Shown in pieces: positions 1,992 to 47,923 of a stretch of DNA of 64,000 nt (positions within the stretch are counted from its first letter, which is position 1; each line of letters begins with the position of its first letter). This DNA comes from Akkermansiaceae bacterium (GTDB lineage: Bacteria; Verrucomicrobiota; Verrucomicrobiia; Verrucomicrobiales; Akkermansiaceae). The stretch lies in the NCBI GenBank assembly GCA_015062005.1, contig SUVL01000006.1:11029-75028 (forward strand). The letters are read 5' to 3'. A model generated the notes under the pieces. That model was given only the letters and a program-made list of their open reading frames with translations, was not told where the DNA came from and searched no databases. Made by a program: the position numbers and the translations under genes.

Positions 1992-4307
1992 TTAGATGTT
2001 ATCTTTCTTTTCTTCTGGGGCTGAGGAATCCTCACTGGCTGATTCCTGCGGAGCCGGGGGCTCATCATCGGGCGTTTCCAGATCGGTGGGGGCATCCTCA
2101 TCCTCGGGGATGGGCGGGGGCAGCTGGCGCACGGGCGGGTCGGTCATCTCGCCGGTTTCCAGCAGCTCGGTCACCTGCTTGCCGCTCAGCGTTTCGAACT
2201 CGATGAGCTTGTCCGCTATAAGGAGCAGGCGTTCCTTGTTCTCGGTGAGAATCTGCACGGCGCGGTTGTAGTTCTCCGTCACGATGCGCTGGATTTCCTC
2301 ATCGATAATCTGGGCGGTGTGCTCCGAGAAGTTGCGGGTGGTCTGGGAGATATCGCGGGCCAGGAATACTTCACTGTGGTTCGTGCCGTATTCGATGGGG
2401 CCGAGCTTCTCGCTCATGCCGTAGACGCAGACCATCTTGCGGGCAATATTGGTTGCCTGGTGGATATCGCCGCGGGCGCCGCCGGAAACATCGCCGAACA
2501 CCACGAGCTCAGCGCAGCGGCCGCCCATGGCCATCACGATGTAGTCCAGCAGCTCGCTCTTGTATTCGCTGTGCTTATCCTCATCCGGCAGCATCATGGT
2601 CACACCCAGGGCCGGGCCGCGGGGGATGATGGTGACCTTGTGCAGCGGCAGGCTCTTGGCCAGCGCGGTTTTCAGCAGGCACACGGCGTGGCCGGCTTCG
2701 TGTACGGCGGTCATGTACTTCTCCTTGTCGGAGATTTCCAGGGAACGGCGCTCGCGCCCCCAGCGTACCTTCTCGCGGGCTTCCTCCAGGTCGCTCTGGT
2801 CAACCGTGGGCTTGTTCTGTCGGGCGGCGATGAGGGCTGCCTCGTTCACCAGGTTGGCCAGCTCTGCGCCGGAGAAACCGGTGGTGGCGCGGGCAATCGG
2901 GCCCAGATCCACCTCCGGGGAAAGTTTTATCTTGCGGGCATGCACGCGCAGGATCTGCTCACGCCCGGCGGCATCCGGCAGGTTCACTGTCACCTGGCGG
3001 TCAAAGCGGCCGGGGCGCAGCAGGGCGGGGTCGAGCACGTCCACGCGGTTGGTGGCGGCAATGACGATGACATTTTCGTTGGCCGTGAAACCGTCCATCT
3101 CCACAAGCAGGGCGTTGAGCGTCTGCTCGCGTTCATCGTGACCACCGCCCACGCCGTGGCCACGGTGGCGACCCACCGCATCAATCTCATCGATGAAGAT
3201 AAGGCAGGGGTTGTGCTTCTTGGCCTCGGCAAACATATCGCGCACGCGGCTGGCACCCACACCCACGAACATTTCCACAAAGTCGGAACCGGAGATGGTG
3301 TAGAAGGGAACCCCGGCCTCACCTGCAATGGCGCGGGCCAGCAGGGTCTTACCTGTGCCGGGAGGCCCCACCATGAGCACGCCCTTGGGAATGGTGCCGC
3401 CCAGGTTGCGGAATTTCTTCGGGTTGCGCAGGAACTCCACGATTTCCCACACTTCCTCCTTGGCTTCAGAGATGCCGGCCACATCCTTGAAGGTGACCTT
3501 GTTCTGGCTGGGGTCGAGCAGCCGGGCGCGGCTGCGGGCAAACTTCATGGCGCCGCCGGGGCCGCCGCCCTGGGCTCGGAAGAAGAAGAACAGGAGCAGC
3601 AGCACGATGGCGAAGGGCAGCACGTTGATGAGGAACATGCTCCAGGTGTTGCTCTCCACTACGTATTTCACCTGGTTGCCCAGCAGGTCGCGCACCTGCT
3701 CGCCCTGGAAGGCGGAGTTGAACTCCACGCGCACCGGCTCCAGATCCTTCAGCTGGGCCTTGGTGGACGGCGCAAGGCGGTACTCGCCCACGATGATTCC
3801 CTGACCGTTCCCCTCGTAGATGACCGGGCTGTTGCCGGTGGTGATGATGCGGCCCTCGGCCCCCATGCGTGCAAAATCATCTGTGGACCAGATGCGGTCG
3901 CCCTGGGGTTCCTTCGGGGCTGTTTCCACGCGGGTGGTGGTGATGCCGAAACGGTTGCAGAGGGCACGGATTTCATCCGAATCGGTAAAGGGCATGTAGA
4001 AGGCGGCCTTCGGGTACTGCGGCACATTGCGGTACTCGAATGCGGAGATGATACCCTCGGTGGATGAGGCATCCAGCGTTACTTCAACCGGGAATTCCTT
4101 GGGCTGGTTGAGCACCACTTTGCCGGCGCGGTAATCCTGCTTGAATTGCTCCAGACTGATGGTCCTGCCGGGGGAGGCCAGGGCTCCATCGAACATGAAG
4201 GCAACCATGAGGATACCAACGATGACGGCCATGAGAATCATGACGCCCCAGTTTGTGTTTCCTCCAGGTGTGGGTAATTTGTTGGGTTGTTTGTTCGGGT
4301 CAGACAT
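1992..4307 (-). CDS. ftsH: ATP-dependent zinc metalloprotease FtsH
   Basis: 771 aa with Walker [12 protein letters not shown] region, HEAGH zinc site and two TM helices. The segment between the TMs is about 185 aa, which is unusually long, and there is an acidic C-terminal tail. Confidence 0.95.
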
Positions 4308-4466
4308 ATGGTCCAGTTTTACTTTTTCGCATTTTACCGTAGTTATTCCAGTTGCGGAATAGCCTTTTGTGCCATAAACGCCAAAAATGGCGTCAGTATA
4401 GCGTTCATCCGCCCCAGAAAAATGCCACAGATGTGTGTGGGGGGGGACGATTCCTGTGTGGTAATC

Positions 4467-6152
4467 TTATAAACTCTGGTAGTTCAGAACTATTTCCCAG
4501 TTCTTATCCTGTGAATAAAAGTTTGCCAGTTCGTTTATCCTTATACTATCCTGATGATCATCATGTAATTGAATGCATTTATAGATGAGGTAGCCTGTTC
4601 CCACAGCGATAATGGCAACGCCTCCCCCCACAACCAGAGCCCCCATGGCTGCCCCACCACCACCTGCTGCAAGGGTCCCACCCCCATATATTGCAAGGGT
4701 TGCATTTGAGGCTGCTGCTCCGCTCAGCGAGGATATTGCCGTTCCTGTTGAAGCGGCCATGCTTAATGCTGCCGGGGCCGCCATCATCGCACTGTAAGCA
4801 CCTATCGACGCGACCGTTGCCCCGGCTGAGACAACGGCTCCCTGGTGTGCCTCGTTCCAGGAGGCCTTGCCGCTCATGGCCAGACCATAACCAGCAAGTG
4901 CATCAACTGCCGCAAAAATGCCGCTTCCGCGTATGAAGGCTCTGGGCATCATGAGAGTGGCTGCGGATCTCCCATAACGAGTCATTGACAAGCCCTTTCC
5001 AATCGCATATTGTTCTACGCCTTGCACTAAGGCTCCGCCGACAGTCGCGACTGCTCCACTGTACGCCAATTGAAAACCGGAAACTTTCTGATTGACGAGA
5101 AGTTGAATACCTGCGTCCAGTCCAACGGAACCTGCACCCATCAGTCCACTGCTCAGCGTGATGGCTTTGACTTGTGAATTGGGGGTAATACCCTGGCGCA
5201 AGGTCATGTTTTTCTGACAGTCTTTGGCAATCTGCATGGCCTTTCCTTCCGGAAGGTCACATGTAGTCATTATTTTCTGTGCTATCAGATTGCGTACGTC
5301 ATCCGATATTAATCCCTTTTTATCCAGAGCCCCGGGAAGCACGACCTCACCGGTGACAGGCAGTTGCTTCAGAGTTGTATGATGAGAGATGTTATCTGCG
5401 TCGTATATGGTGATACGCATGTCTTGCTCTACCGGGTTGAGGTGGAAAATACGGGAGCGGTAACTCACCGTGCCGTTCCCGGCGGCCTGCAGAAATTTGC
5501 CGTAATGCTCAGCAAGCCTCTGAGCTTCCGCCAGGTCGGATATATCGCCGTCAAATTTCCATGGAGATTTAGCATCTTTCCGCCAGAAATGTACATCCTT
5601 TCCACTTTTCAGTGTGACATTATGGACGTGGCTGCCGGAGAATTGAGGTCGCTTTGCCGGTTGGATGTTTTCTGTTTTTGCAATATGGGCGTATCTGTTC
5701 CCTAAAGCAATGATACGTTTACTTTTCCACGGTCCCCCCATCTGGATGCCATCTTTTGTGAGCCCCAGCTGACTGCTCCCATATTTGGACTCGGCAATCA
5801 TCAGGTCATGGGGAAAGCCATTTTCATCCAGTTTGATGAAGATATGATCCAGACCTTGCGGGCCGGAGCGGGGCCGAATGGATTTCCATGAGTGCCCTTT
5901 GCTATCTTTCTGCAGGAAGACGGATTCGGTGAGAGATTCGCCTATGGCACCTTTCATGCCTGGCAGGTTATTCCCCATGACAGAACGAGCAAAAGCAACA
6001 TCCGGACGAGTGCTCATGGAGCCGATGCTCACACTCAGCCCGGCAGCATGCGTGTTGTGCATCTCCTCCGTTTCTCCTAGCGCTATCTGGCAACACAGAA
6101 GAAGGCAGAGAGGAAACTTCTGTAGAAAGCTCTTCATGTTAAAATTCTTCAA
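4467..6152 (-). CDS. Hypothetical secreted/membrane protein: signal peptide, Mrr-like PD-(D/E)xK motif, Gly/Ala-rich hydrophobic C-terminal region
   Basis: 561 aa. The N-terminus MKNFNMKSFLQKFPLCLLLCCQIALG looks like a signal peptide. GLDHIFIKLDENGFPHDLMIAESKYG matches GxD...ExK of restriction-endonuclease-fold domains. Residues about 330-525 are rich in small residues (GxxxG/AxxxA) and hydrophobic. The gene is AT-rich relative to its flanks. Confidence 0.6.
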   Translation of the reverse strand: MKNFNMKSFLQKFPLCLLLCCQIALGETEEMHNTHAAGLSVSIGSMSTRPDVAFARSVMGNNLPGMKGAIGESLTESVFLQKDSKGHSWKSIRPRSGPQGLDHIFIKLDENGFPHDLMIAESKYGSSQLGLTKDGIQMGGPWKSKRIIALGNRYAHIAKTENIQPAKRPQFSGSHVHNVTLKSGKDVHFWRKDAKSPWKFDGDISDLAEAQRLAEHYGKFLQAAGNGTVSYRSRIFHLNPVEQDMRITIYDADNISHHTTLKQLPVTGEVVLPGALDKKGLISDDVRNLIAQKIMTTCDLPEGKAMQIAKDCQKNMTLRQGITPNSQVKAITLSSGLMGAGSVGLDAGIQLLVNQKVSGFQLAYSGAVATVGGALVQGVEQYAIGKGLSMTRYGRSAATLMMPRAFIRGSGIFAAVDALAGYGLAMSGKASWNEAHQGAVVSAGATVASIGAYSAMMAAPAALSMAASTGTAISSLSGAAASNATLAIYGGGTLAAGGGGAAMGALVVGGGVAIIAVGTGYLIYKCIQLHDDHQDSIRINELANFYSQDKNWEIVLNYQSL

Positions 6153-7717
6153 TTGATTTCTTCTGACTCAGAGCAAGAATTTTCATGGCGGAAGCTGCTT
6201 TTGTGCCGTTATATTCATCTATCACTTTGGCACGAATATACTGGTATATCTCCATGCTTTCAGGAGTAAGTAGCGTTACGTCAATCTCATATATCTTATA
6301 ATGATTCATTATTGAATCTGCATCTTCATCATTAAAAGGATTGCAACGCTCGTGGAAGTCAATGGCCGTCTTGCATTTATCCACTGCCCACATCTGATAT
6401 GCGGCCTTGCGAGCCTTCTGCAGGTTATCGATTTCGCCAGAAAGCGTATTCATCTTTTTCTTGCATTCAAGCAACATATTATTATTGGTGATACCAGGCA
6501 GCAAGGCATTGAGCTTTGCTGCCTTGCGGCTCAGCAGCTGCAGTCTGGTGGTGAGTTCTCCGCCGTTGAGGGGGATTGCTTCATCAAACATATTGAACTG
6601 GCTTTTGAACCTTTCTGGCAGACTGTCGATGCTGTCCGTGTATACACAATCGAACACTTGTTGCATGAATTTGGCCTTCAGGTCATCAGTTTTTGTTTCA
6701 CAAGTCCGGATCCGGTTGGCAAATTGTTTGAGTTGGGCAGGGTAGGCCTCGGGAATGGCTGAGAGGTCGTGGCTCATGAGATTAATGGTGGCGGCATAGG
6801 CTGATTGAAGTTTTGCAGCGATAATATCAAGTTGATCCATATCGATGAACTGGTTCTGATTCAGAGCCTGTTCTATGGGGTGAATGGCGTTTTCTATGTT
6901 ATTGGCACCAAGAAGGTACGTGAGCAGGGATGATGTCTTCTTCAGCTCTGTTTCATCGTTATCCTGCTGGAGCAGGGCGAGCCGTTGCTGGCAAACGGTG
7001 ATTTGCTCCTGATAATTCCCTGGAGTTTCAAGTTTCTTCCACTGTTCCGCGAGGGTGTTTTGTAATTCTTGTTCGGCCTTTTGCTGTTTTTGCTCTGCTT
7101 CTGCCAGCTTCGTTTCTCTGATGGAAGAAATGCGTTTACGAAGCGATTCGGCCAGAGTTGAGAGCTCTGGCATTTGGTCAGCCTGTACTTTGTACATGCC
7201 GGCATCCAGAATGTTGAGGACTTCTTCCAGCCTTGCTGCATCTGCATCGGAGATATTCTCTGCCAGATTTGCAATGTTTGCGTAATACTTGATTTGTGAG
7301 GGATTGGAAGATAACGCGTTGATGCCGTATATCAAGGCACTGTTGAAATCCTTTGCCACCTTGAGTTCCTGGGATTTTTTTCCATGCTTCTTCGGCAAGA
7401 CTCGAGTTGCGATTGATGCTTTCTACTTCTTTTCGTATCTGAGCTATCAGCTCGGAGTGTGTATGAATAGCCTCTTCCTGCATATCTTTCACCGCTTTAA
7501 GCTCATTGATAAGGTCCTTGGTTTGTTCAATACACACGGCCATCTCCTCAGTATGCATCTGATTGGTCAGATTAGCATTCTGTAGTTCGGTTACAGTTTG
7601 CGAAAGGCTTGTGATATCCTTCTGTATGTCTGCCTGCTTGTACAGTATGGCGGCTGCGAGCCCCGATAACAGCAGCGTTGCTCCTCCGGCTAAAATTGCG
7701 GTTCCTTTTGCCTTCAT
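6139..7717 (-). CDS. TM-anchored all-helical coiled-coil protein; reading frame interrupted at an A7 tract (7375-7381)
   Basis: Track ORF 7178..7717 starts MKAKGTAILAGGATLLLSGLAAAILY (a TM helix) followed by coiled coil. After the A7 run its frame becomes R/C/Q-rich and looks non-coding. Track ORF 6139..7398 continues with plausible helical sequence. Removing one A fuses them: ..EEAWKK-SQELKVAKDF... The 3' end overlaps the start of the 561-aa gene by 14 nt. Confidence 0.5.
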
Positions 7718-7804
7718 GTGTGAAAATGGAATGTCGTTTGATTAATGCAGGTTTGAATAATGAGAAATCCAGATGTTTGTTTTATGGCAAAGTGCCTGAA
7801 AATG

Positions 7805-7832
7805 AAACAAGCGCAACTGAGTGCGCTTGTTT
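7805..7832 (-). terminator. Rho-independent terminator after ribBA
   Basis: Perfect 11-bp stem aaacaagcgca / tgcgcttgttt with a 6-nt loop. On the minus strand it is followed by CATTTTC. Confidence 0.7.
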
Positions 7833-7848
7833 GCCATATAAAAGGCGG

Positions 7849-10954: not shown

Positions 10955-11638
10955 GTGTGGGCAGGAATTTGCTTGATATGCAACATGGTCGCAATTATAA
11001 TTTCTGCGGGTATGGCCGAAACTGCGGAAAATGTGGCGGTGGGTAAGAAACGAAGCAACTCGAAACTCCTGCTGGTGGTCATCTGGATGCTTGTTGTTGC
11101 CGGTCTGCCCATTTACTATTTGCGTCCTGATTGCGATTGGGATTACTCCCGCTGGGCTGCTCCCGAGGAGATTCTGGAAACAAAACAGAGCCCGGAAAAT
11201 CACCTGCATGGAGATGAAGGCGTGTATACACGCGTTTTCGTGGTCCGCCCTTCGAAGGCTAATTACATATCCTTTGATATAAAAAGAGAGCAAAGCAGAA
11301 AGAGCATAGCACCCTTTCTGTCATCTCTGCTGAGGGAGTACGAGTTGCCGCCCCCATACAACTATGGCAGTTGGCTGGAGTACGGATGGGTGGATTGGGT
11401 AGAGTGCGGCAATGGGTTGCTGCTGGTGTGCGATTACAGCCGCAACAAAGGCGGGCTGATGTCTGCACGCTGGAGATGGGAAGATGGCAACTATCCCGGT
11501 CATGTTGCCCTTTTTTACTTCTGGGCATGGCTTTCCATCTGGGGGCTTTTGCTGACCGTGGTTTTGCTTGTACCGGGGGTAGTGCTGTATGGTCTGTTTC
11601 GTGCGCTCAAACGCTTCATCCGCCTTGTAAAATCATAG
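10955..11638 (+). CDS. Hypothetical membrane protein (start uncertain)
   Basis: 227-aa ORF with N- and C-terminal hydrophobic helices and a Trp-rich middle. No family recognised. It is somewhat AT-richer than its neighbours. Confidence 0.45.
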   Translation: MWAGICLICNMVAIIISAGMAETAENVAVGKKRSNSKLLLVVIWMLVVAGLPIYYLRPDCDWDYSRWAAPEEILETKQSPENHLHGDEGVYTRVFVVRPSKANYISFDIKREQSRKSIAPFLSSLLREYELPPPYNYGSWLEYGWVDWVECGNGLLLVCDYSRNKGGLMSARWRWEDGNYPGHVALFYFWAWLSIWGLLLTVVLLVPGVVLYGLFRALKRFIRLVKS

Positions 11639-18956: not shown

Positions 18957-19029
18957 ATTCCCCCGTTAGCCCATGGGGCAACCGACAATTCTCCCAAACG
19001 AGAAAACCACAAACGACACATAAATCATT

Positions 19030-19134
19030 ATGGGATCGCTTAAGAAGAGACGTAAGGCTAAGATTAACAAGCACAAGCGCAGCAAGCGCATGCGCCAGAA
19101 CCGCCACAAGAAGCGTTTGCGTTACAAGTCCTAA
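19030..19134 (+). CDS. Small basic protein resembling 30S ribosomal protein bS22 (AURKAIP1/COX24-type)
   Basis: The 34-aa product MGSLKKRRKAKINKHKRSKRMRQNRHKKRLRYKS resembles the bS22 pattern MGSV.KKRRKRM.KKKHRKLL. It has its own promoter and terminator and is too short for the ORF track. Confidence 0.65.
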   Translation: MGSLKKRRKAKINKHKRSKRMRQNRHKKRLRYKS

Positions 19135-19178
19135 GCTGCGCGCTTAGGCCACGTCCGCAAGCGACGCTGTTCTTTTCA

Positions 19179-19216
19179 CGGCACTGTTTCCAGCTTGGAT
19201 TCAGTGCCGTTTTTCT
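19179..19216 (+). terminator. Rho-independent terminator
   Basis: Stem cggcactg (19179-19186) / cagtgccg (19202-19209) followed by TTTTTC. Confidence 0.7.
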
Positions 19217-19294
19217 TGTTGGAGTTAATTTTTCAATATTATCCACATGCCGGCTTGACCACGGCCGGGGTGCTGTATTATAATGCAATAAGCA

Positions 19295-19735
19295 ATGATG
19301 CTGGCCACGCCTATGTTCAACCTGTTTTTCTCGACAATGCTGCCATTGGCCGCGTTGCTCTGCGTGTGGTTCGCGGTGCTGTATCTGATTCGCGGTGCGC
19401 GCTCCCTGGTGCTGCGCATCCGTATGCTGAGGGAAGGGTTGCACGCCTGCAGTGTTATGGTCTCTTACAATGGAGATGGTGAGGCGCGCTTTGTACCGGT
19501 GTTTTCTTACACGACTTCGCGCGGTGATGAGGTGGATATTCTGGGGGATTCGGAGTTTGCGTCCAGGGAGGAGGCGATGCTGGCACGCCGCCCGCTTGTC
19601 TACGCAGATGAACGTCCGGATTCAGCCATGGCAAAGAGCGCGTTTTTTTTCGTAGGTGAGCCAGCCCTGTTCATTCTGCTGGCGGTGGTGCTCACTGTTC
19701 TGGCGCATTATTTGCTGCTATACATGCCGGATTAA
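19295..19735 (+). CDS. Hypothetical membrane protein (DUF3592-like topology)
   Basis: 146 aa with a TM helix, a soluble beta-rich segment, and a second TM helix. Confidence 0.5.
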   Translation: MMLATPMFNLFFSTMLPLAALLCVWFAVLYLIRGARSLVLRIRMLREGLHACSVMVSYNGDGEARFVPVFSYTTSRGDEVDILGDSEFASREEAMLARRPLVYADERPDSAMAKSAFFFVGEPALFILLAVVLTVLAHYLLLYMPD

Positions 19736-19768
19736 CGAGTTTACAAGTAAATGTGCGCGTGGTAGAGT

Positions 19769-20317
19769 ATGGTCATGAACACAATGCCTGCCGGATATTC
19801 CATGCGCCTGGCTTCCATGGCTGACTTTGCCGCCATCCGAGCCTTTTATAATGAGCTCATTGATGATATGGCTGACCGTCCGTTCCATCCTATGTGGGAT
19901 AAGAAGGGGCACCCTTCTGATGAATATCTGCGCATGGCAACCGAAGCAGGTGAACTCTGGGTTACCGAAGGAGATGGTGCCATTGTGGCGGCTGTGATTG
20001 TGAATGGTGAGGTGAATGATGGGTATAACCAGGTTCCCTGGCAGATTCAGGCCGACGCTGGCGAGTTTATCAGTGTGCATGCTTTCGGGGTCTCCATGCG
20101 GCTGCAGGGGCAGGGCATCGGTAAGGCGATGATGCATGCCATCATGGATGCCGCCCGTGCTGCTGGTAAAAAGGCTATCCGGCTTGATTTGATTGATTTC
20201 AACCTCCCCACAGGCAGGGTGTATGAGAAGCTGGGCTTCCGCAAATGCGCGGAGGTGAAGTTGTATTATGCCGAGGTGGGCTGGCAGCTTTTCCACATGT
20301 TTGAATATGTGCTCTGA
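19769..20317 (+). CDS. GNAT family N-acetyltransferase
   Basis: 182 aa with the acetyl-CoA motif RLQGQGIGKAMMHAIMDAARAAG. Confidence 0.85.
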   Translation: MVMNTMPAGYSMRLASMADFAAIRAFYNELIDDMADRPFHPMWDKKGHPSDEYLRMATEAGELWVTEGDGAIVAAVIVNGEVNDGYNQVPWQIQADAGEFISVHAFGVSMRLQGQGIGKAMMHAIMDAARAAGKKAIRLDLIDFNLPTGRVYEKLGFRKCAEVKLYYAEVGWQLFHMFEYVL

Positions 20318-20324
20318 TAAAAGA

Positions 20325-20360
20325 AGATGCACCCGGATTGGCCCGGATGCATCTCTTTTG
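20325..20360 (+). terminator. Rho-independent terminator after the GNAT gene
   Basis: Stem agatgca / tgcatct with inner ccgg/ccgg pairing, followed by CTTTTG. Confidence 0.55.
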
Positions 20361-20379
20361 TCTCTCTCATAGTTGCTCT

Positions 20380-20829
20380 TTACAGAGCAGGCTTTTTCGG
20401 GGTCGGTGCGGTGTCCGTACCCTTGAAGGTCTTGTTGGGCAGCCAGGTCTGGTTGCGACCCAGAAAGGCTATTTTGCCGCGCACGATGAGCTTATCGCCC
20501 TCGCGCCACATCTCGCAGCCATATACCTTGCCCTTCTGCGGGTCAAGGATTTCGCCGCCGCTGTAGGTATCGCCATCCTTCTCCAGATCCCAGATGATGG
20601 TCAAGCCCTTGATGGAGGGACTGCCCTTGATTTTTGCCTTAGCTCCGGGATTCTGCAGCAGCTGCACTACCTGGCCGTAGTATTTTCCCTGGTATTCGTA
20701 TACCTGCACGACACTTTTGGCTTCTTTCGTCTCATCGTCAATGGTGGTCCAGTAGCCCGTGATGTTCGCTGTGGCTTGTGCCGCCAGTGCGCAGAATGCC
20801 ATGCATGCGCTCAGTAGAAGTGTTTTCAT
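20380..20829 (-). CDS. DUF2147 domain-containing secreted protein
   Basis: 149 aa with a signal peptide. GYWTTIDDET..VQVYEYQGKYYGQV and ILDPQKGKVYGCEMW fit the DUF2147 pattern. Confidence 0.75.
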   Translation of the reverse strand: MKTLLLSACMAFCALAAQATANITGYWTTIDDETKEAKSVVQVYEYQGKYYGQVVQLLQNPGAKAKIKGSPSIKGLTIIWDLEKDGDTYSGGEILDPQKGKVYGCEMWREGDKLIVRGKIAFLGRNQTWLPNKTFKGTDTAPTPKKPAL

Positions 20830-21007
20830 TGGTGTGTGTTTCTATTGGTTGGTTGTTCCCTACATGTGGAAAAGCTAGAGTAGGGTCTAGGTGGAGTGTA
20901 CTCTATATTTGGGGTGTGGTCAAGAAAAAACATAAAAAAGATTGAAAATTTCAAATAAAATGGTATTGGAAAATCGCTCAACTGACAGATAACCCCTTAT
21001 TTGAGAA

Positions 21008-45026: not shown

Positions 45027-46096
45027 TGCATGACTCCAATTTCTGGATGAGATGCTTACGTAAAGATTCCCTGCTGCTTTTCCTGGTGCTTCTGGTGGCG
45101 GGACTACTGGTGGAGCGCTTCAGTGGGGATGATACTCTGCTGCGCTGGCTGGGAGCCGCTCCTCCAGCGCAGCAGCAGGAATATGTGCCTGGAGTGGCTA
45201 ACCTGGAACTGCCAGCAGAGGTCGCGCATACCGCACCCTTGCAGAAACAGGTGGACATCGCAGCCATCCCCAGGCCGGGTAAACCTGTTCGCTTCCTGAT
45301 GCACAATGTGCAGAACTACTTTGTGGAAGGTGAAGTGCAGCGTTCTCCCTATGTGCTGAAACCCAAGACCAGGAATTCCCGCGATGCCGTGGCGGATATC
45401 ATTGCGGAGGCGAAGCCCCAGATAGTGGGCCTCATCGAAATTGGCGGCCCTCTGGCCTTGCAGGATTTGCGCCAGCGCCTGGCTGCCCGCGGCTTGGAAT
45501 TTCCTTATTACCGTGTGCTCATCCGGCCGGGTGAAGACCGTGCGCTGGCTGTGCTTTCGGTGCATCCCATCGTTCAGGACCACTCCCAGAGCAAGGTGAA
45601 GCTCCACCAGCAGAAGCGCCGCAAGATGCTGCGTGGTATTCTGGATGTCACAATCCGGCTGGATGATGGCCGCTTGTTCCGCATTGTTGGTGCGCATCTG
45701 AAATCCCGCGTGGCGGAGGATGCCGCCGCTGCTTCCGCTCTCCGCAAGCAGGAAGCCTATACCCTGGCTCAGCATATTCAGCACATTGCCCGAATGCAGA
45801 AGGGATTGCCCTTACTCGTGTTTGGTGATTGGAATGACGGCCCGGCGGATGCCGCGCCCCGGATAGTGCAGCAGGGCCTTTCGCAGGATGCTGCGCTGCG
45901 CCGCCTCTCTCCGGAGGATTCCCGCGGCGAGGAATGGACTCTTTACTACAAGCGCGGTAAGGAGTACTGCGTCTACGACCAGATTTTTGTGAACCCGGTT
46001 CTCCGGGAACGCATGCGCGGGCAGGGCGGTATCGTTGATATACCAGCGGCCGCCAAGGCTTCCGACCACCGCGCCCTCTGGTGCGATTTACGATGA
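45026..46096 (+). CDS. Endonuclease/exonuclease/phosphatase (EEP) family protein, membrane-anchored
   Basis: The start overlaps the hemB stop (TAATG). It has an N-terminal TM helix and a C-terminal SDHRALW motif. Confidence 0.7.
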   Translation: MHDSNFWMRCLRKDSLLLFLVLLVAGLLVERFSGDDTLLRWLGAAPPAQQQEYVPGVANLELPAEVAHTAPLQKQVDIAAIPRPGKPVRFLMHNVQNYFVEGEVQRSPYVLKPKTRNSRDAVADIIAEAKPQIVGLIEIGGPLALQDLRQRLAARGLEFPYYRVLIRPGEDRALAVLSVHPIVQDHSQSKVKLHQQKRRKMLRGILDVTIRLDDGRLFRIVGAHLKSRVAEDAAAASALRKQEAYTLAQHIQHIARMQKGLPLLVFGDWNDGPADAAPRIVQQGLSQDAALRRLSPEDSRGEEWTLYYKRGKEYCVYDQIFVNPVLRERMRGQGGIVDIPAAAKASDHRALWCDLR

Positions 46097-47749
46097 CTCC
46101 TGAACCGGTATTGTCGTTTCAGCTATTTGTCCGGTCTGCCAATTCAGCAGTATCAGATGAAGGGCTTTGCCTGATTTTGTCTCGTCCTTTATAATCAGGT
46201 AGACATGTTCATTCTGGTAATCCATGCCAAAGTTGGCATGCGAGCTGCCTCGCACAAGGTGCAGCAGTATGTGCCGATGCTTGTAGTCCCACGGATATCG
46301 CAGCTGCCTGGATTCCCCCTGATTCAATATGAGGGAGCTGGAGTAATCCCGGCCGTAGTGAAGAATCATGTGCCGGGGGAGCCGGACAATAATGAATTGG
46401 TTTTGGCGTATGGCTTGTATCGCATCATCCTTGTTATCGGCGAATGCTGTGGCGGCGTTGATTTCCCGGGAATAGATGTTGTAGCCGACAGAAAAGAGGG
46501 GAAGTTCGAATAACCTGGCTATGCTGTCAGTATTAAAATCCCTGTCCGGCACGCCGGGGAGAGAATTTCTCAGATGCCAGCTTGGAGTGTTTTCTTCTGT
46601 ATATTCATCTCTGATGATGACTCTTTCCTGCGCTGCCTTACGTATGGTATCAGAATATTGTTGGTAATCGGTGTATGCCCGTGTGCAGGAAATGCCTGCT
46701 GCGGCGAAAACTGCACACCAGGAAATGAAGGATAAAGCTTTTCCTTTGGTGCAGATGCCGGGTTGCAAGGTCGACAACGCAAAGAACATCATGGCGAGAG
46801 AGGGATAGAAATATGCTCCGCCCCAGTATCCCTTGGAGGCAAAAACGAGCCCAGGAAGGGAAAAGATGACGGCCATGAGCAGGTGGCTTGCTTTCCGGTA
46901 ATCCCAACTCCTTTGGCGGATAATGGCTGCGAGCGAAACAAGCAGGGGAATGGCGCAATTCAGGATGAAAATGCATATGCTGTATACAAGGTCAGAACAA
47001 AAAGTGGACAGGGAGGGGCTGGCTGCTCTCGTGTATAGTCCGGGCGAGGAGATTGGTATCAGGAGCCCTGCTGCCGTGCAGATGAAACAGAGTAGCGTAT
47101 CTCGCGACAGGTATTTCTCTTTTATTATCTGGATGGTGGCCAGACATCCGAAATACGCCAGGAGTGGCAGCCCCAGTGCTTCATGCATACCGCCGCATAG
47201 AAACGAGAGTATGCAGACCACGATGAGTTTGGCAACACCATGTGGATGTGCTTGCCTCTGTGTGAGGAAGAGTAGTAAGCTGAGGAACATGGCACCCCAG
47301 AAATAGTTGAAAGCCCCGGCTGACCAGAATAAAACCCGGTCAAGATGGGGAATAAGGAAAAGGATACCGAGCAGGGTGATGCCGAGATTCCGGACAGTAA
47401 TGGAGGAAAGAAAGAGCTTACATGTCGTGATGATAAAGACGCCGAAAACGAGGGTATGCAGAATGTCCAGCAGATGTTTGCTTCCGATATTGGTGAATAG
47501 CAGCATCAGAATGTTGCCGATTCTCCAGATGTGAACGTGGCCGAACCGCTTTAGCGATTCTATCCAGTCACCGACCGTGGTGATTCTGTTCACGGAAAAC
47601 AGATTTCCTGATTCCCGAAAATCGGGAGAGACGGAAAAGTGATACCATATGTCATCCCAGATGAAGGGTGTATGGGAGAATCTCACCCATATCAGCACAA
47701 GTATGATAAACAGGAGGAGACCGGTATATATTTTCTTTTTTGTCAGCAT
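46088..47749 (-). CDS. Polytopic membrane protein, GT-C-like (DUF6056-like) putative glycosyltransferase
   Basis: Start taken at MLTKKKIYTGLLLFIILVL. It has more than 10 TM helices, a WDDIWY acidic motif in the first loop and a soluble C-terminal domain. The gene is AT-rich. Confidence 0.5.
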   Translation of the reverse strand: MLTKKKIYTGLLLFIILVLIWVRFSHTPFIWDDIWYHFSVSPDFRESGNLFSVNRITTVGDWIESLKRFGHVHIWRIGNILMLLFTNIGSKHLLDILHTLVFGVFIITTCKLFLSSITVRNLGITLLGILFLIPHLDRVLFWSAGAFNYFWGAMFLSLLLFLTQRQAHPHGVAKLIVVCILSFLCGGMHEALGLPLLAYFGCLATIQIIKEKYLSRDTLLCFICTAAGLLIPISSPGLYTRAASPSLSTFCSDLVYSICIFILNCAIPLLVSLAAIIRQRSWDYRKASHLLMAVIFSLPGLVFASKGYWGGAYFYPSLAMMFFALSTLQPGICTKGKALSFISWCAVFAAAGISCTRAYTDYQQYSDTIRKAAQERVIIRDEYTEENTPSWHLRNSLPGVPDRDFNTDSIARLFELPLFSVGYNIYSREINAATAFADNKDDAIQAIRQNQFIIVRLPRHMILHYGRDYSSSLILNQGESRQLRYPWDYKHRHILLHLVRGSSHANFGMDYQNEHVYLIIKDETKSGKALHLILLNWQTGQIAETTIPVQESS

Positions 47750-47923
47750 GTGATGTAATTGTAGGCCGGTGCCAGCCGAGTTTATCATAACTGTTTCAGT
47801 GCATGCAACTCCAAAAGTACGTCTATTCCATAAACTTACATGAATCTGGTCTGAACAGGGGAGATGAAACGGCACGCTGACATATTACTTGATGAGTTGT
47901 GCTCCAGCGGGTATAATGCCTGC

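Follow-up and report, generated by a model that had tools for sequence, protein, structure and literature searches.

A low-GC two-gene cassette between ribBA and ftsH of an Akkermansiaceae bacterium and its possible role in membrane-acting defence

The A-B cassette between ribBA and ftsH

A stretch of 64,000 nucleotides from an Akkermansiaceae bacterium (assembly GCA_015062005.1, contig SUVL01000006.1, positions 11,029 to 75,028 of the forward strand; here called the window) contains a low-GC island at positions 4308-7848. The island holds two co-oriented genes on the minus strand, here named A and B, which are located between ribBA and ftsH, and the gene order along this strand is glnS, ribBA, A, B, ftsH and rsfS. 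The product of gene B was found to carry a module homologous to the core of the anti-phage effector DinC, and the A-B pair recurs in other genomes. We tentatively read the pair as a defence-type cassette that acts on membranes.

The GC content was observed to be 0.43-0.51 over positions ~4200-7800 as against 0.60-0.65 in ftsH, ribBA and glnS. At third codon positions (GC3) the values are 0.49-0.52 for A and B, compared with 0.80 for ftsH, 0.80 for ribBA and 0.84 for glnS. Since the loss of GC is largest at synonymous sites, it represents a compositional signature and not a by-product of a Lys/Glu-rich coiled coil; amino-acid makeup as the sole source of the dip is ruled out by the same contrast. 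The GC3 of the cassette is foreign-like. An earlier note, made from the letters of this DNA, had proposed an AT-rich insertion at this position, and both the composition and an empty site in a relative with a 92% identical RibBA (see below) bear this out.

The upstream boundary of the island is the intrinsic terminator hairpin of ribBA (7805-7832, minus strand), an 11-bp stem followed by UUUCAUUUU. The hairpin, which had been named in the earlier note, indeed folds at -20.1 kcal/mol (z = -4.95). Between this terminator and the start codon of gene A lies an AT-rich untranslated leader (7718-7804, minus strand) which presumably contains the promoter of the cassette, and a scan of this leader gave no strong sigma-70 consensus. 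A terminator-like hairpin follows gene B (4374-4394, minus strand; GACGCCA-UUUU-UGGCGU and then UUAU) in a structured spacer of 159 nt between B and ftsH (4308-4466; -48.2 kcal/mol, z = -3.87). With terminators after both ribBA and B, the cassette looks like a separate transcription unit, in agreement with the two-gene unit suggested earlier.

Two other properties of the locus concern ribBA and the RNA content of the window. The ribBA gene starts only 10 nt after glnS and no FMN riboswitch precedes it. An Rfam scan of the whole 64 kb (1-64000) at the gathering threshold returned no family.

Protein B and its DinC-like module

Gene B (4467-6137, minus strand) encodes 556 amino acids from an ATG at 6137, and a public protein (P0001) is 100% identical to it. 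A protein of 561 amino acids had been proposed earlier; the corresponding open reading frame (ORF; 4467-6152) exists and begins with a signal-like segment, but it uses a TTG at 6152 whereas the public gene calls use the ATG. The 14-nt overlap of A and B described with it likewise holds for the TTG start only, as the ATG leaves a gap of 1 nt after the stop codon of A. The tight juxtaposition itself is conserved, with A and B abutting or overlapping by a few bases in the homologous loci.

The AlphaFold2 (AF2) model of the full-length protein has a mean predicted local distance difference test (pLDDT) score of 75.5. A predicted signal peptide occupies residues 1-21 (6075-6137, minus strand), with MKSFLQKFPLCLLLCCQIALG before and ETEE after the presumed cleavage site, and a hydropathy of 1.5 at residues 3-21. 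It is followed by an N-terminal alpha/beta domain (residues ~55-270; 5328-5975, minus strand), delimited from a family alignment (A1) and an AF2 domain model. Eight residues of this domain are invariant in the alignment (G63, E67, W84, D97, K118, Q132, W137 and R141) and E116 is conserved in at least 90% of the members. They form a GxxGE...D...ExK...Q motif in which the glutamate lies on a helix, the aspartate opens a strand, ExK falls on the strand after it and the glutamine precedes the following helix. The domain model (pLDDT 81.9, and 82-97 in the core) shows a helix-strand-strand-strand-helix-strand order.

This arrangement resembles the PD-(D/E)xK nucleases, as E67, D97, E116-x-K118 and Q132 occur in the canonical order and spacing on the predicted helix-strand-strand-strand-helix core, and the GxxGE...DH...ExK pattern resembles NERD-type domains, with the putative catalytic motif modelled on a helix-strand-strand-strand-helix-strand core. 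Defence systems frequently include PD-(D/E)xK domains, those of the NERD type among them. The likeness has its limits. No Pfam family was matched at E <= 1 with thirty family members, the B profile found no relative among PDB sequences, and Foldseek gave no match at E <= 0.001 either for the full model (PDB and the viral-fold set BFVD) or for the N-domain model (PDB). The best Foldseek match (E = 0.028) is not a nuclease, and the best nuclease is SPARDA with E = 0.28 and a TM score of 0.22. The domain is also predicted to be periplasmic in most members, which differs from the PD-(D/E)xK nucleases. The nuclease-like motif pointed out in the earlier note thus stands as a set of conserved residues, while a nuclease fold is unsupported by the profile and fold searches, and the term 'nuclease-like' stays a motif-level lead.

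Residues ~320-520 contain 21% alanine and 18% glycine and form four weakly hydrophobic helices and one strong transmembrane (TM) helix at 500-518 (hydropathy 2.07). Within this region lies the DinC-like Gly/Ala-rich membrane module (residues 439-518, including ...ASTGTAISSLSGAAASNATLAIYGGGTLAAGGGG... and the TM helix; 4584-4823, minus strand), which was detected by PADLOC, hhalign and BLASTP. The PADLOC model PDC-M09A matches residues 434-505 (E = 7.5e-14) at profile positions ~139-208, so that B covers 70 of the 330 positions, and other members of the B family match it at 1e-17 to 1e-20. This was the only match of B in PADLOC; scans of B against NCBIfam and Pfam gave none, and A has no PADLOC match. 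An hhalign comparison of the B family with the DinC/PDC-M09A family gave a probability of 99.8% (E = 1.7e-29) over 79 columns centred on ASTGTAISSLSGAAAxNATLAWLGGGSLAAGGGG, and BLASTP aligned B with DinC at 61% identity over 38 amino acids. The membrane-insertion-like tail seen by the earlier note therefore has a recognizable homologue. Both the strong TM helix and the signal peptide lead to the prediction that B remains in the membrane of its producer with the N-domain in the periplasm.

DinC is the effector of the Dionysus system (DinA, the TerB protein DinB, and DinC), which is directed against jumbo phages and protects more than 10^6-fold against those of the phiKZ-like type (10.1101/2025.09.30.679545). 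Deletion of DinB or DinC abolished the protection and the DinA H326A substitution led to a partial loss (10.1101/2025.09.30.679545). DinC was likened to alpha-pore-forming toxins, possibly of the ClyA/Hbl type, with four TM segments, and was predicted to bind the C-terminus of DinA; its proposed target is the phage early infection vesicle and not the host membrane, with no host permeabilisation reported (10.1101/2025.09.30.679545). The published DinC sequence (Table S1, 10.1101/2025.09.30.679545) falls in the 330-aa PDC-M09A family. Only family codes are listed in the supplement of Payne et al., and a text search of the literature for 'PDC-M09' found no paper containing the term.

B and DinC have in common the ~80-residue Gly/Ala-rich module, in which a near-identical motif (ASTGTAISSLSGAAAxNATLAWLGGGxLAAGGxG) precedes the TM helix, and in both cases the gene just before encodes a large helical partner associated with membranes. 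However, DinC is ~340 amino acids long and its N- and C-terminal helical regions have no counterpart in B, whereas B has a 300-residue exported alpha/beta domain instead. Their taxa differ as well, with DinC reported from Gamma- and Betaproteobacteria and Firmicutes and B found mainly in bacteria of the Planctomycetota-Verrucomicrobiota-Chlamydiota (PVC) group. A broader likeness is to alpha-helical pore-forming and glycine-zipper toxins, as B has Ala/Gly/Ser-rich amphipathic helices beside one strongly hydrophobic helix. The B model has no structural match to solved pore-forming toxins, and pore formation by B is putative.

Proteins of 310-340 amino acids that share the B motif are full-length PDC-M09A members (1e-35) and mostly follow a TerB-domain gene. 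A partner of the A type was sought beside these 330-aa DinC-like genes and was absent, with the exception of a Parabeggiatoa locus in which the N-domain is of the D...ExK type. The homologues (L021-L088, for example L031 8967-10555, L046 8689-10567 and L058 732-3854) come from Firmicutes, Bacteroidota, Proteobacteria and Cyanobacteria, usually with a TerB gene directly upstream; L021, L058 and L068 have a DinA-like gene of 510 amino acids upstream instead of TerB. From this spread, Dionysus-like modules appear to be far wider than the reported Gamma- and Betaproteobacteria.

Gene A and its frameshift

Gene A is split in the window into two ORFs on the minus strand, 7178-7717 (179 aa) and 6139-7398 (419 aa). 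The 5' segment (codons 1-112; 7382-7717) encodes a signal/anchor and a coiled-coil stretch and is colinear with an intact allele of 525 amino acids (P0121). The predicted N-terminal signal/anchor itself covers residues ~7-25 (7643-7699) with a hydropathy peak of 2.1. The frame breaks at an A7 homopolymer (7375-7381, T7 on the plus strand), where the intact alleles have A6 encoding W-K-K, and the 3' segment (codons 113-525 of the repaired protein; 6139-7374, within the ORF 6139-7398) continues in the +1 frame. This segment has a TPR-like (tetratricopeptide repeat) hairpin, a long helical region, a YQxWA motif and a conserved C-terminal ...EEF. Read with A6, the sequence becomes ...EEAWKKSQELK... 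and the protein is unbroken over 525 amino acids, close to the ~520 predicted earlier for a repaired frame, with the expected N-terminal hydrophobic anchor and coiled coil.

The A7 tract is also found in five independent metagenome contigs (L001-L005), and a sequencing error behind the frame break is thereby ruled out. On the other hand, a contig that is 97-98% identical (L007) has A6 and an intact gene of 525 amino acids. In the 90% identity cluster of A, forms of 525 or 526 amino acids occur on three contigs against ~31 contigs with forms of 419 or 406 amino acids. The frameshift is thus biological and settled in a widespread lineage while intact alleles circulate. With regard to a possible phase-variable contingency gene, alleles of both tract lengths exist within the coding region, but the homopolymer tract is short, and the A6 and A7 alleles differ at further sites too.

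Alignment A5 of the A family shows an invariant Y440 within YQxWA, a near-invariant N133 and a terminal phenylalanine. The members share an N-terminal hydrophobic segment, a variable coiled coil, the TPR-like hairpin (YCLNAINHxP), the long helical region and a conserved C-terminus of the form ...[DE]xF-COOH. Scans of A and its family (nineteen members) against Pfam, NCBIfam and PADLOC gave only coiled-coil noise and a weak match of the A profile to designed TPR proteins.

The A-B pair in other genomes

A word-indexed search found ~77 full-length relatives of B. When the N-domain profile was run against 1.84 billion representative sequences, 1,286 matches were found at E <= 1e-3 and 190 of them at E <= 1e-30, which puts the A-B family at no fewer than 190 and at up to ~1,300 clusters at 50% identity. 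Of the 150 N-domain matches listed, nearly all are 540-600 amino acids long. In each of the twenty non-redundant loci examined, with the window's own species counted once, the gene immediately upstream is of the A type (430-660 aa) and has the same orientation. The operon is therefore not an orphan as the earlier note had it, although its companion statement, that neither protein can be assigned to a family, still applies. Both families are without a Pfam, NCBIfam or complete PADLOC model and no paper describing the pair was found in the literature. Whatever their function, the A and B families can be defined from the alignments made here.

Export signals were observed to co-vary within the pair. 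Both proteins are signalled in fifteen of the eighteen loci with a complete B, and in the remaining three (L018, L089 and L091) both are without an export signal; one A homologue is a lipoprotein (signal LLAS followed by C). This co-variation suggests that the bulk of A and the N-domain of B share a compartment, in the window the periplasm, and act together. The family is under purifying selection (ratio of nonsynonymous to synonymous substitution rates, dN/dS, of 0.18 for B against L094).

The genome matches belong mostly to Victivallales, Opitutales, Kiritimatiellae, Verrucomicrobiaceae, Akkermansia and Planctomycetota from gut or rumen, with fewer in Desulfobacterales, Rhodothermales, Synergistaceae and Parabeggiatoa. 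The locus in Candidatus Parabeggiatoa sp. HSG14 (L083 7379-10267) encodes a B-like protein of 461 amino acids in which a different and shorter N-domain (GFD...VVVEAKGG) is fused to the DinC-like module, and the gene is preceded by a member of the A family (E = 7e-41). From this arrangement, the A partner appears to track the architecture of a D...ExK domain plus DinC core and not one particular N-domain.

Insertion and exchange between lineages

Homologues of RibBA from named organisms put the window among Akkermansia-like bacteria. The synteny check proposed earlier showed that the site is empty in one relative and filled in others. The empty site has the order glnS-ribBA-(105 nt)-ftsH-rsfS and was found in the relative with 92% identical RibBA (L096 and L097). 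In a second related species (L095) the site is filled by a divergent cassette; the insertion is thus not private to a strain. The DNA of this cassette is only 45-65% identical to that of the window against 80-90% in the flanks, and the B protein is 57% identical as compared with 95% for the C-terminus of RibBA and 86% for FtsH.

The opposite pattern occurs in the L007 contig with the intact A allele. Its cassette is separated from the window's by a synonymous divergence (dS) of 0.02-0.05, while ribBA has a dS of 0.23 and ftsH a dS of 1.38. The identity falls from 95-99% to 63-75% between the intervals 4445-4246 and 4245-4046, and the start of ftsH (4200-4307, minus strand) contains the right-hand recombination breakpoint at ~4245. 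With a history uncoupled from that of its flanks, the cassette behaves as an exchangeable island at a fixed site that is moved by homologous recombination, without mobility genes of its own. Presence/absence polymorphism together with the atypical composition fits an accessory island, and ribBA-ftsH would be a hotspot where lineages swap divergent alleles.

Marks of an integrative element were not found at the locus, as stated in the earlier note. No integrase or transposase is present among the ORFs around the island, whose flanks consist of housekeeping genes; no tRNA gene was found in the whole 64 kb as a possible target, and the repeat scan of the flanks gave nothing notable, including flanking direct repeats. 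When the spacer of the empty site was aligned with the junctions of the island to look for target duplications, the sequences turned out to be too diverged to show any. None of the more distant cassettes adjoins ribBA or ftsH, and these are mostly lower in GC than their surroundings too.

A separate observation concerns FtsH itself. Its N-terminal periplasmic domain is unusually divergent between the window and L007, two loci that are almost identical elsewhere (95-99% just upstream); the 5' part of the gene (3520-4307 in the window and 3936-4721 in L007) has 71% protein and 63-75% DNA identity.

Gene neighbourhoods

The neighbourhood scan covered 119 ORFs within 6 kb of fifteen cassettes, with PADLOC matches taken at E <= 1e-6. 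The models matched were LeoA (four), LeoBC (two), type IIG restriction-modification (RM), dGTPase, BrxA, IetA, PsyrA, ShosA, SoFic, components of MADS, and PDC-S02, S14 and S57; WYL was also seen. In L089 the cassette is part of an element that also has integrase, terminase and PDDEXK_1 genes, and two dynamin-like GTPases are encoded immediately upstream of it. In L091 the cassette is found among HsdM fragments, a DUF4357 gene, a NucS-like gene and a transposase, and in L006 beside WYL, DUF772 and HD/dGTPase genes.

The LeoA and LeoBC genes are those of the Eleos system. In L017 (1524-8300) two such genes lie ahead of the cassette in the same orientation, a LeoBC-LeoA fusion (1.9e-114) and a LeoA gene (2.9e-63), with one unassigned ORF of 385 amino acids between them and A, and in L089 (1-8662) the Eleos genes are immediately adjacent. 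Their presence upstream in two unrelated lineages hints at a larger composite operon, and Eleos resembles the A-B pair in that both concern membranes. By contrast, no dynamin-like gene lies beside the cassette in the window or in thirteen of the fifteen loci, and A and B are dissimilar in sequence to both LeoA and LeoBC. Taken as guilt by association, the neighbourhoods are suggestive of defence.

Three other regions of the window drew attention by their composition. An ORF of 227 amino acids between glnS and rnc (10955-11638, plus strand) has a GC of 0.51, a GC3 of 0.58, hydrophobic stretches and no Pfam match, and a gene of 208 amino acids is called at its position in metagenome contigs (L001 2500-3126). 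A low-GC patch (0.49-0.51) over 46-48 kb, which may be a second acquired segment, holds an ORF of 595 amino acids with a DUF6056 match (46088-47875, minus strand; E = 3.9e-30). The third dip (19001-21000; GC 0.51-0.52) contains a GNAT acetyltransferase gene (19769-20317) and short ORFs without a family.

Interpretation and alternative explanations

Because the membrane module of B is that of an established anti-phage effector, we favour, at somewhat less than even confidence, the reading of the A-B pair as a new membrane-acting cassette of the conflict or defence type, most probably directed against phages, accessory and exchanged by recombination. B would be an inner-membrane protein with a Sec-exported N-domain facing the periplasm and DinC-like helices at its C-terminus, and A would be an exported, membrane-tethered partner with TPR-like and coiled-coil parts in the same compartment as that domain. 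One or both of A and the N-domain of B may sense an event at the level of the envelope, upon which the DinC-like helices would perturb a membrane, either the cell's own or one derived from the phage. The window strain would make only B and an anchorless fragment of A, unless slippage on the A run restores the frame, and the system in this strain is probably disabled or down-tuned.

Several points weigh against the defence reading. The case for the function of the family is wholly computational. The similarity to DinC extends over only ~80 residues of low-complexity Gly/Ala-rich sequence, in which the AF2 pLDDT is 40-58, and the fold searches with the N-domain gave nothing significant. It would also be unusual for a defence system to have a sensor or nuclease domain that faces the periplasm. 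About 19 of the 119 neighbouring ORFs match PADLOC, an approximate tally from per-family member counts with no background rate to compare it with, and single-HMM matches such as dGTPase, Fic and WYL need not mean defence. Several loci, L092 among them, have housekeeping neighbours only, and the same is true of the window. Dionysus requires the TerB protein DinB, but neither A nor B has a TerB match and no further gene is present between ribBA and ftsH. A was also considered as a DinA homologue, and hhalign of the A-family profile against a DinA-like alignment gave a probability of 1%, so that the two are unrelated. The cassette is therefore not Dionysus, though B carries the core of a validated defence effector. 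Finally, the concentration in PVC bacteria of gut and rumen could instead mean a lineage-specific envelope function.

Such a non-conflict function, for instance in membrane maintenance or stress or as a structural or remodelling complex, possibly together with dynamin-like GTPases and optional in PVC bacteria and a few others, is unlikely in our judgement. It would account for the predicted envelope location of both proteins, for the prevalence of the family in gut and rumen Verrucomicrobiota, Lentisphaerota, Kiritimatiellia and Planctomycetota, for the loci with nothing but housekeeping neighbours and for the closeness to dynamin-like GTPases, which remodel membranes; the window cassette also adjoins ftsH, which encodes a protease for membrane-protein quality control. 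However, where dynamin-like genes adjoin the cassette it is specifically the Eleos defence models that they match, and defence genes, RM and BREX included, as well as a prophage-like element occur together with cassettes of the family. An envelope function is also hard to combine with the patchy distribution and the empty site in a close relative, with the foreign-like GC3, with a cassette that is extremely divergent relative to its flanks and discordant with them in phylogeny, and with the tolerance of a frameshifted A in most sampled genomes. The same frameshift leads to a further alternative, somewhat improbable, namely that the island is a decaying remnant in this strain, with A7 having inactivated the system and B persisting for lack of time without a current function. 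The break cuts A after its signal/anchor and is fixed in the window lineage in at least five samples, and the 3' part of A has the highest dN/dS of the three segments compared (0.55 against 0.28 and 0.37), although the substitution counts are too few to show relaxed selection. B, on the other hand, is intact in all of the contigs of this lineage (at least 21), no further disabling mutation occurs in either segment of A, the 3' ORF of which stays open for 419 codons, and a change of one base in a homopolymer is reversible and can be bypassed by transcriptional or translational slippage.

The earlier note had likened the pair to a toxin/immunity or bacteriocin-like module, in which B would be an exported toxin (a nuclease, a pore former or both) and A its membrane-anchored immunity protein or helper. 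B has a signal peptide, a nuclease-like motif and glycine-zipper-like helices of the sort common in membrane-active toxins, and fast divergence with exchange between lineages is seen in polymorphic toxin loci. We nevertheless consider this reading very unlikely. The strong TM helix and cytoplasmic tail of B would retain it in the producer, and the presumed toxin domain is N-terminal and not C-terminal. No small immunity gene lies downstream of B, where a terminator and then ftsH follow, and A is upstream and with 525 amino acids as large as B. No secretion-system, lysis or export gene was found among the annotated neighbours of six locus types, a count limited to these neighbourhoods and not made genome-wide, and in three lineages both proteins lack export signals. 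A frameshifted A with an intact B is moreover the majority form, and the many such genomes suggest that B alone is not constitutively lethal, which speaks against an essential antitoxin or immunity role for A.

A bolder form of the defence reading goes further and is, in our estimate, rather doubtful. It proposes that A-B is a widespread unrecognised defence system on the periplasmic face of the inner membrane, in which the exported NERD/PD-(D/E)xK-like domain and the TPR/coiled-coil partner would detect or cut foreign DNA, or sense a breach at the injection stage, and then trigger a DinC-type glycine-zipper effector, sometimes with Eleos GTPases, with the ribBA-ftsH site as an exchange hotspot. 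We know of no anti-phage system for which an extracytoplasmic sensing logic of this kind has been described. Modular defence through membrane effectors is already known, and what would be new is the combination of a DinC core with a fused, exported D...ExK domain and a TPR/coiled-coil partner.

Should the defence reading be true, the natural A6/A7 polymorphism would offer an on/off pair of alleles that is usable for experiments. To our knowledge, there is almost no defence biology known for PVC bacteria and Akkermansia-like gut bacteria. The pair would then represent a new family of two-gene membrane-acting immune systems in which the effector core of Dionysus is combined with different extracytoplasmic sensing parts, and it would broaden the modular view of phage defence to include the periplasm as well as PVC and Akkermansia-like bacteria of the gut.

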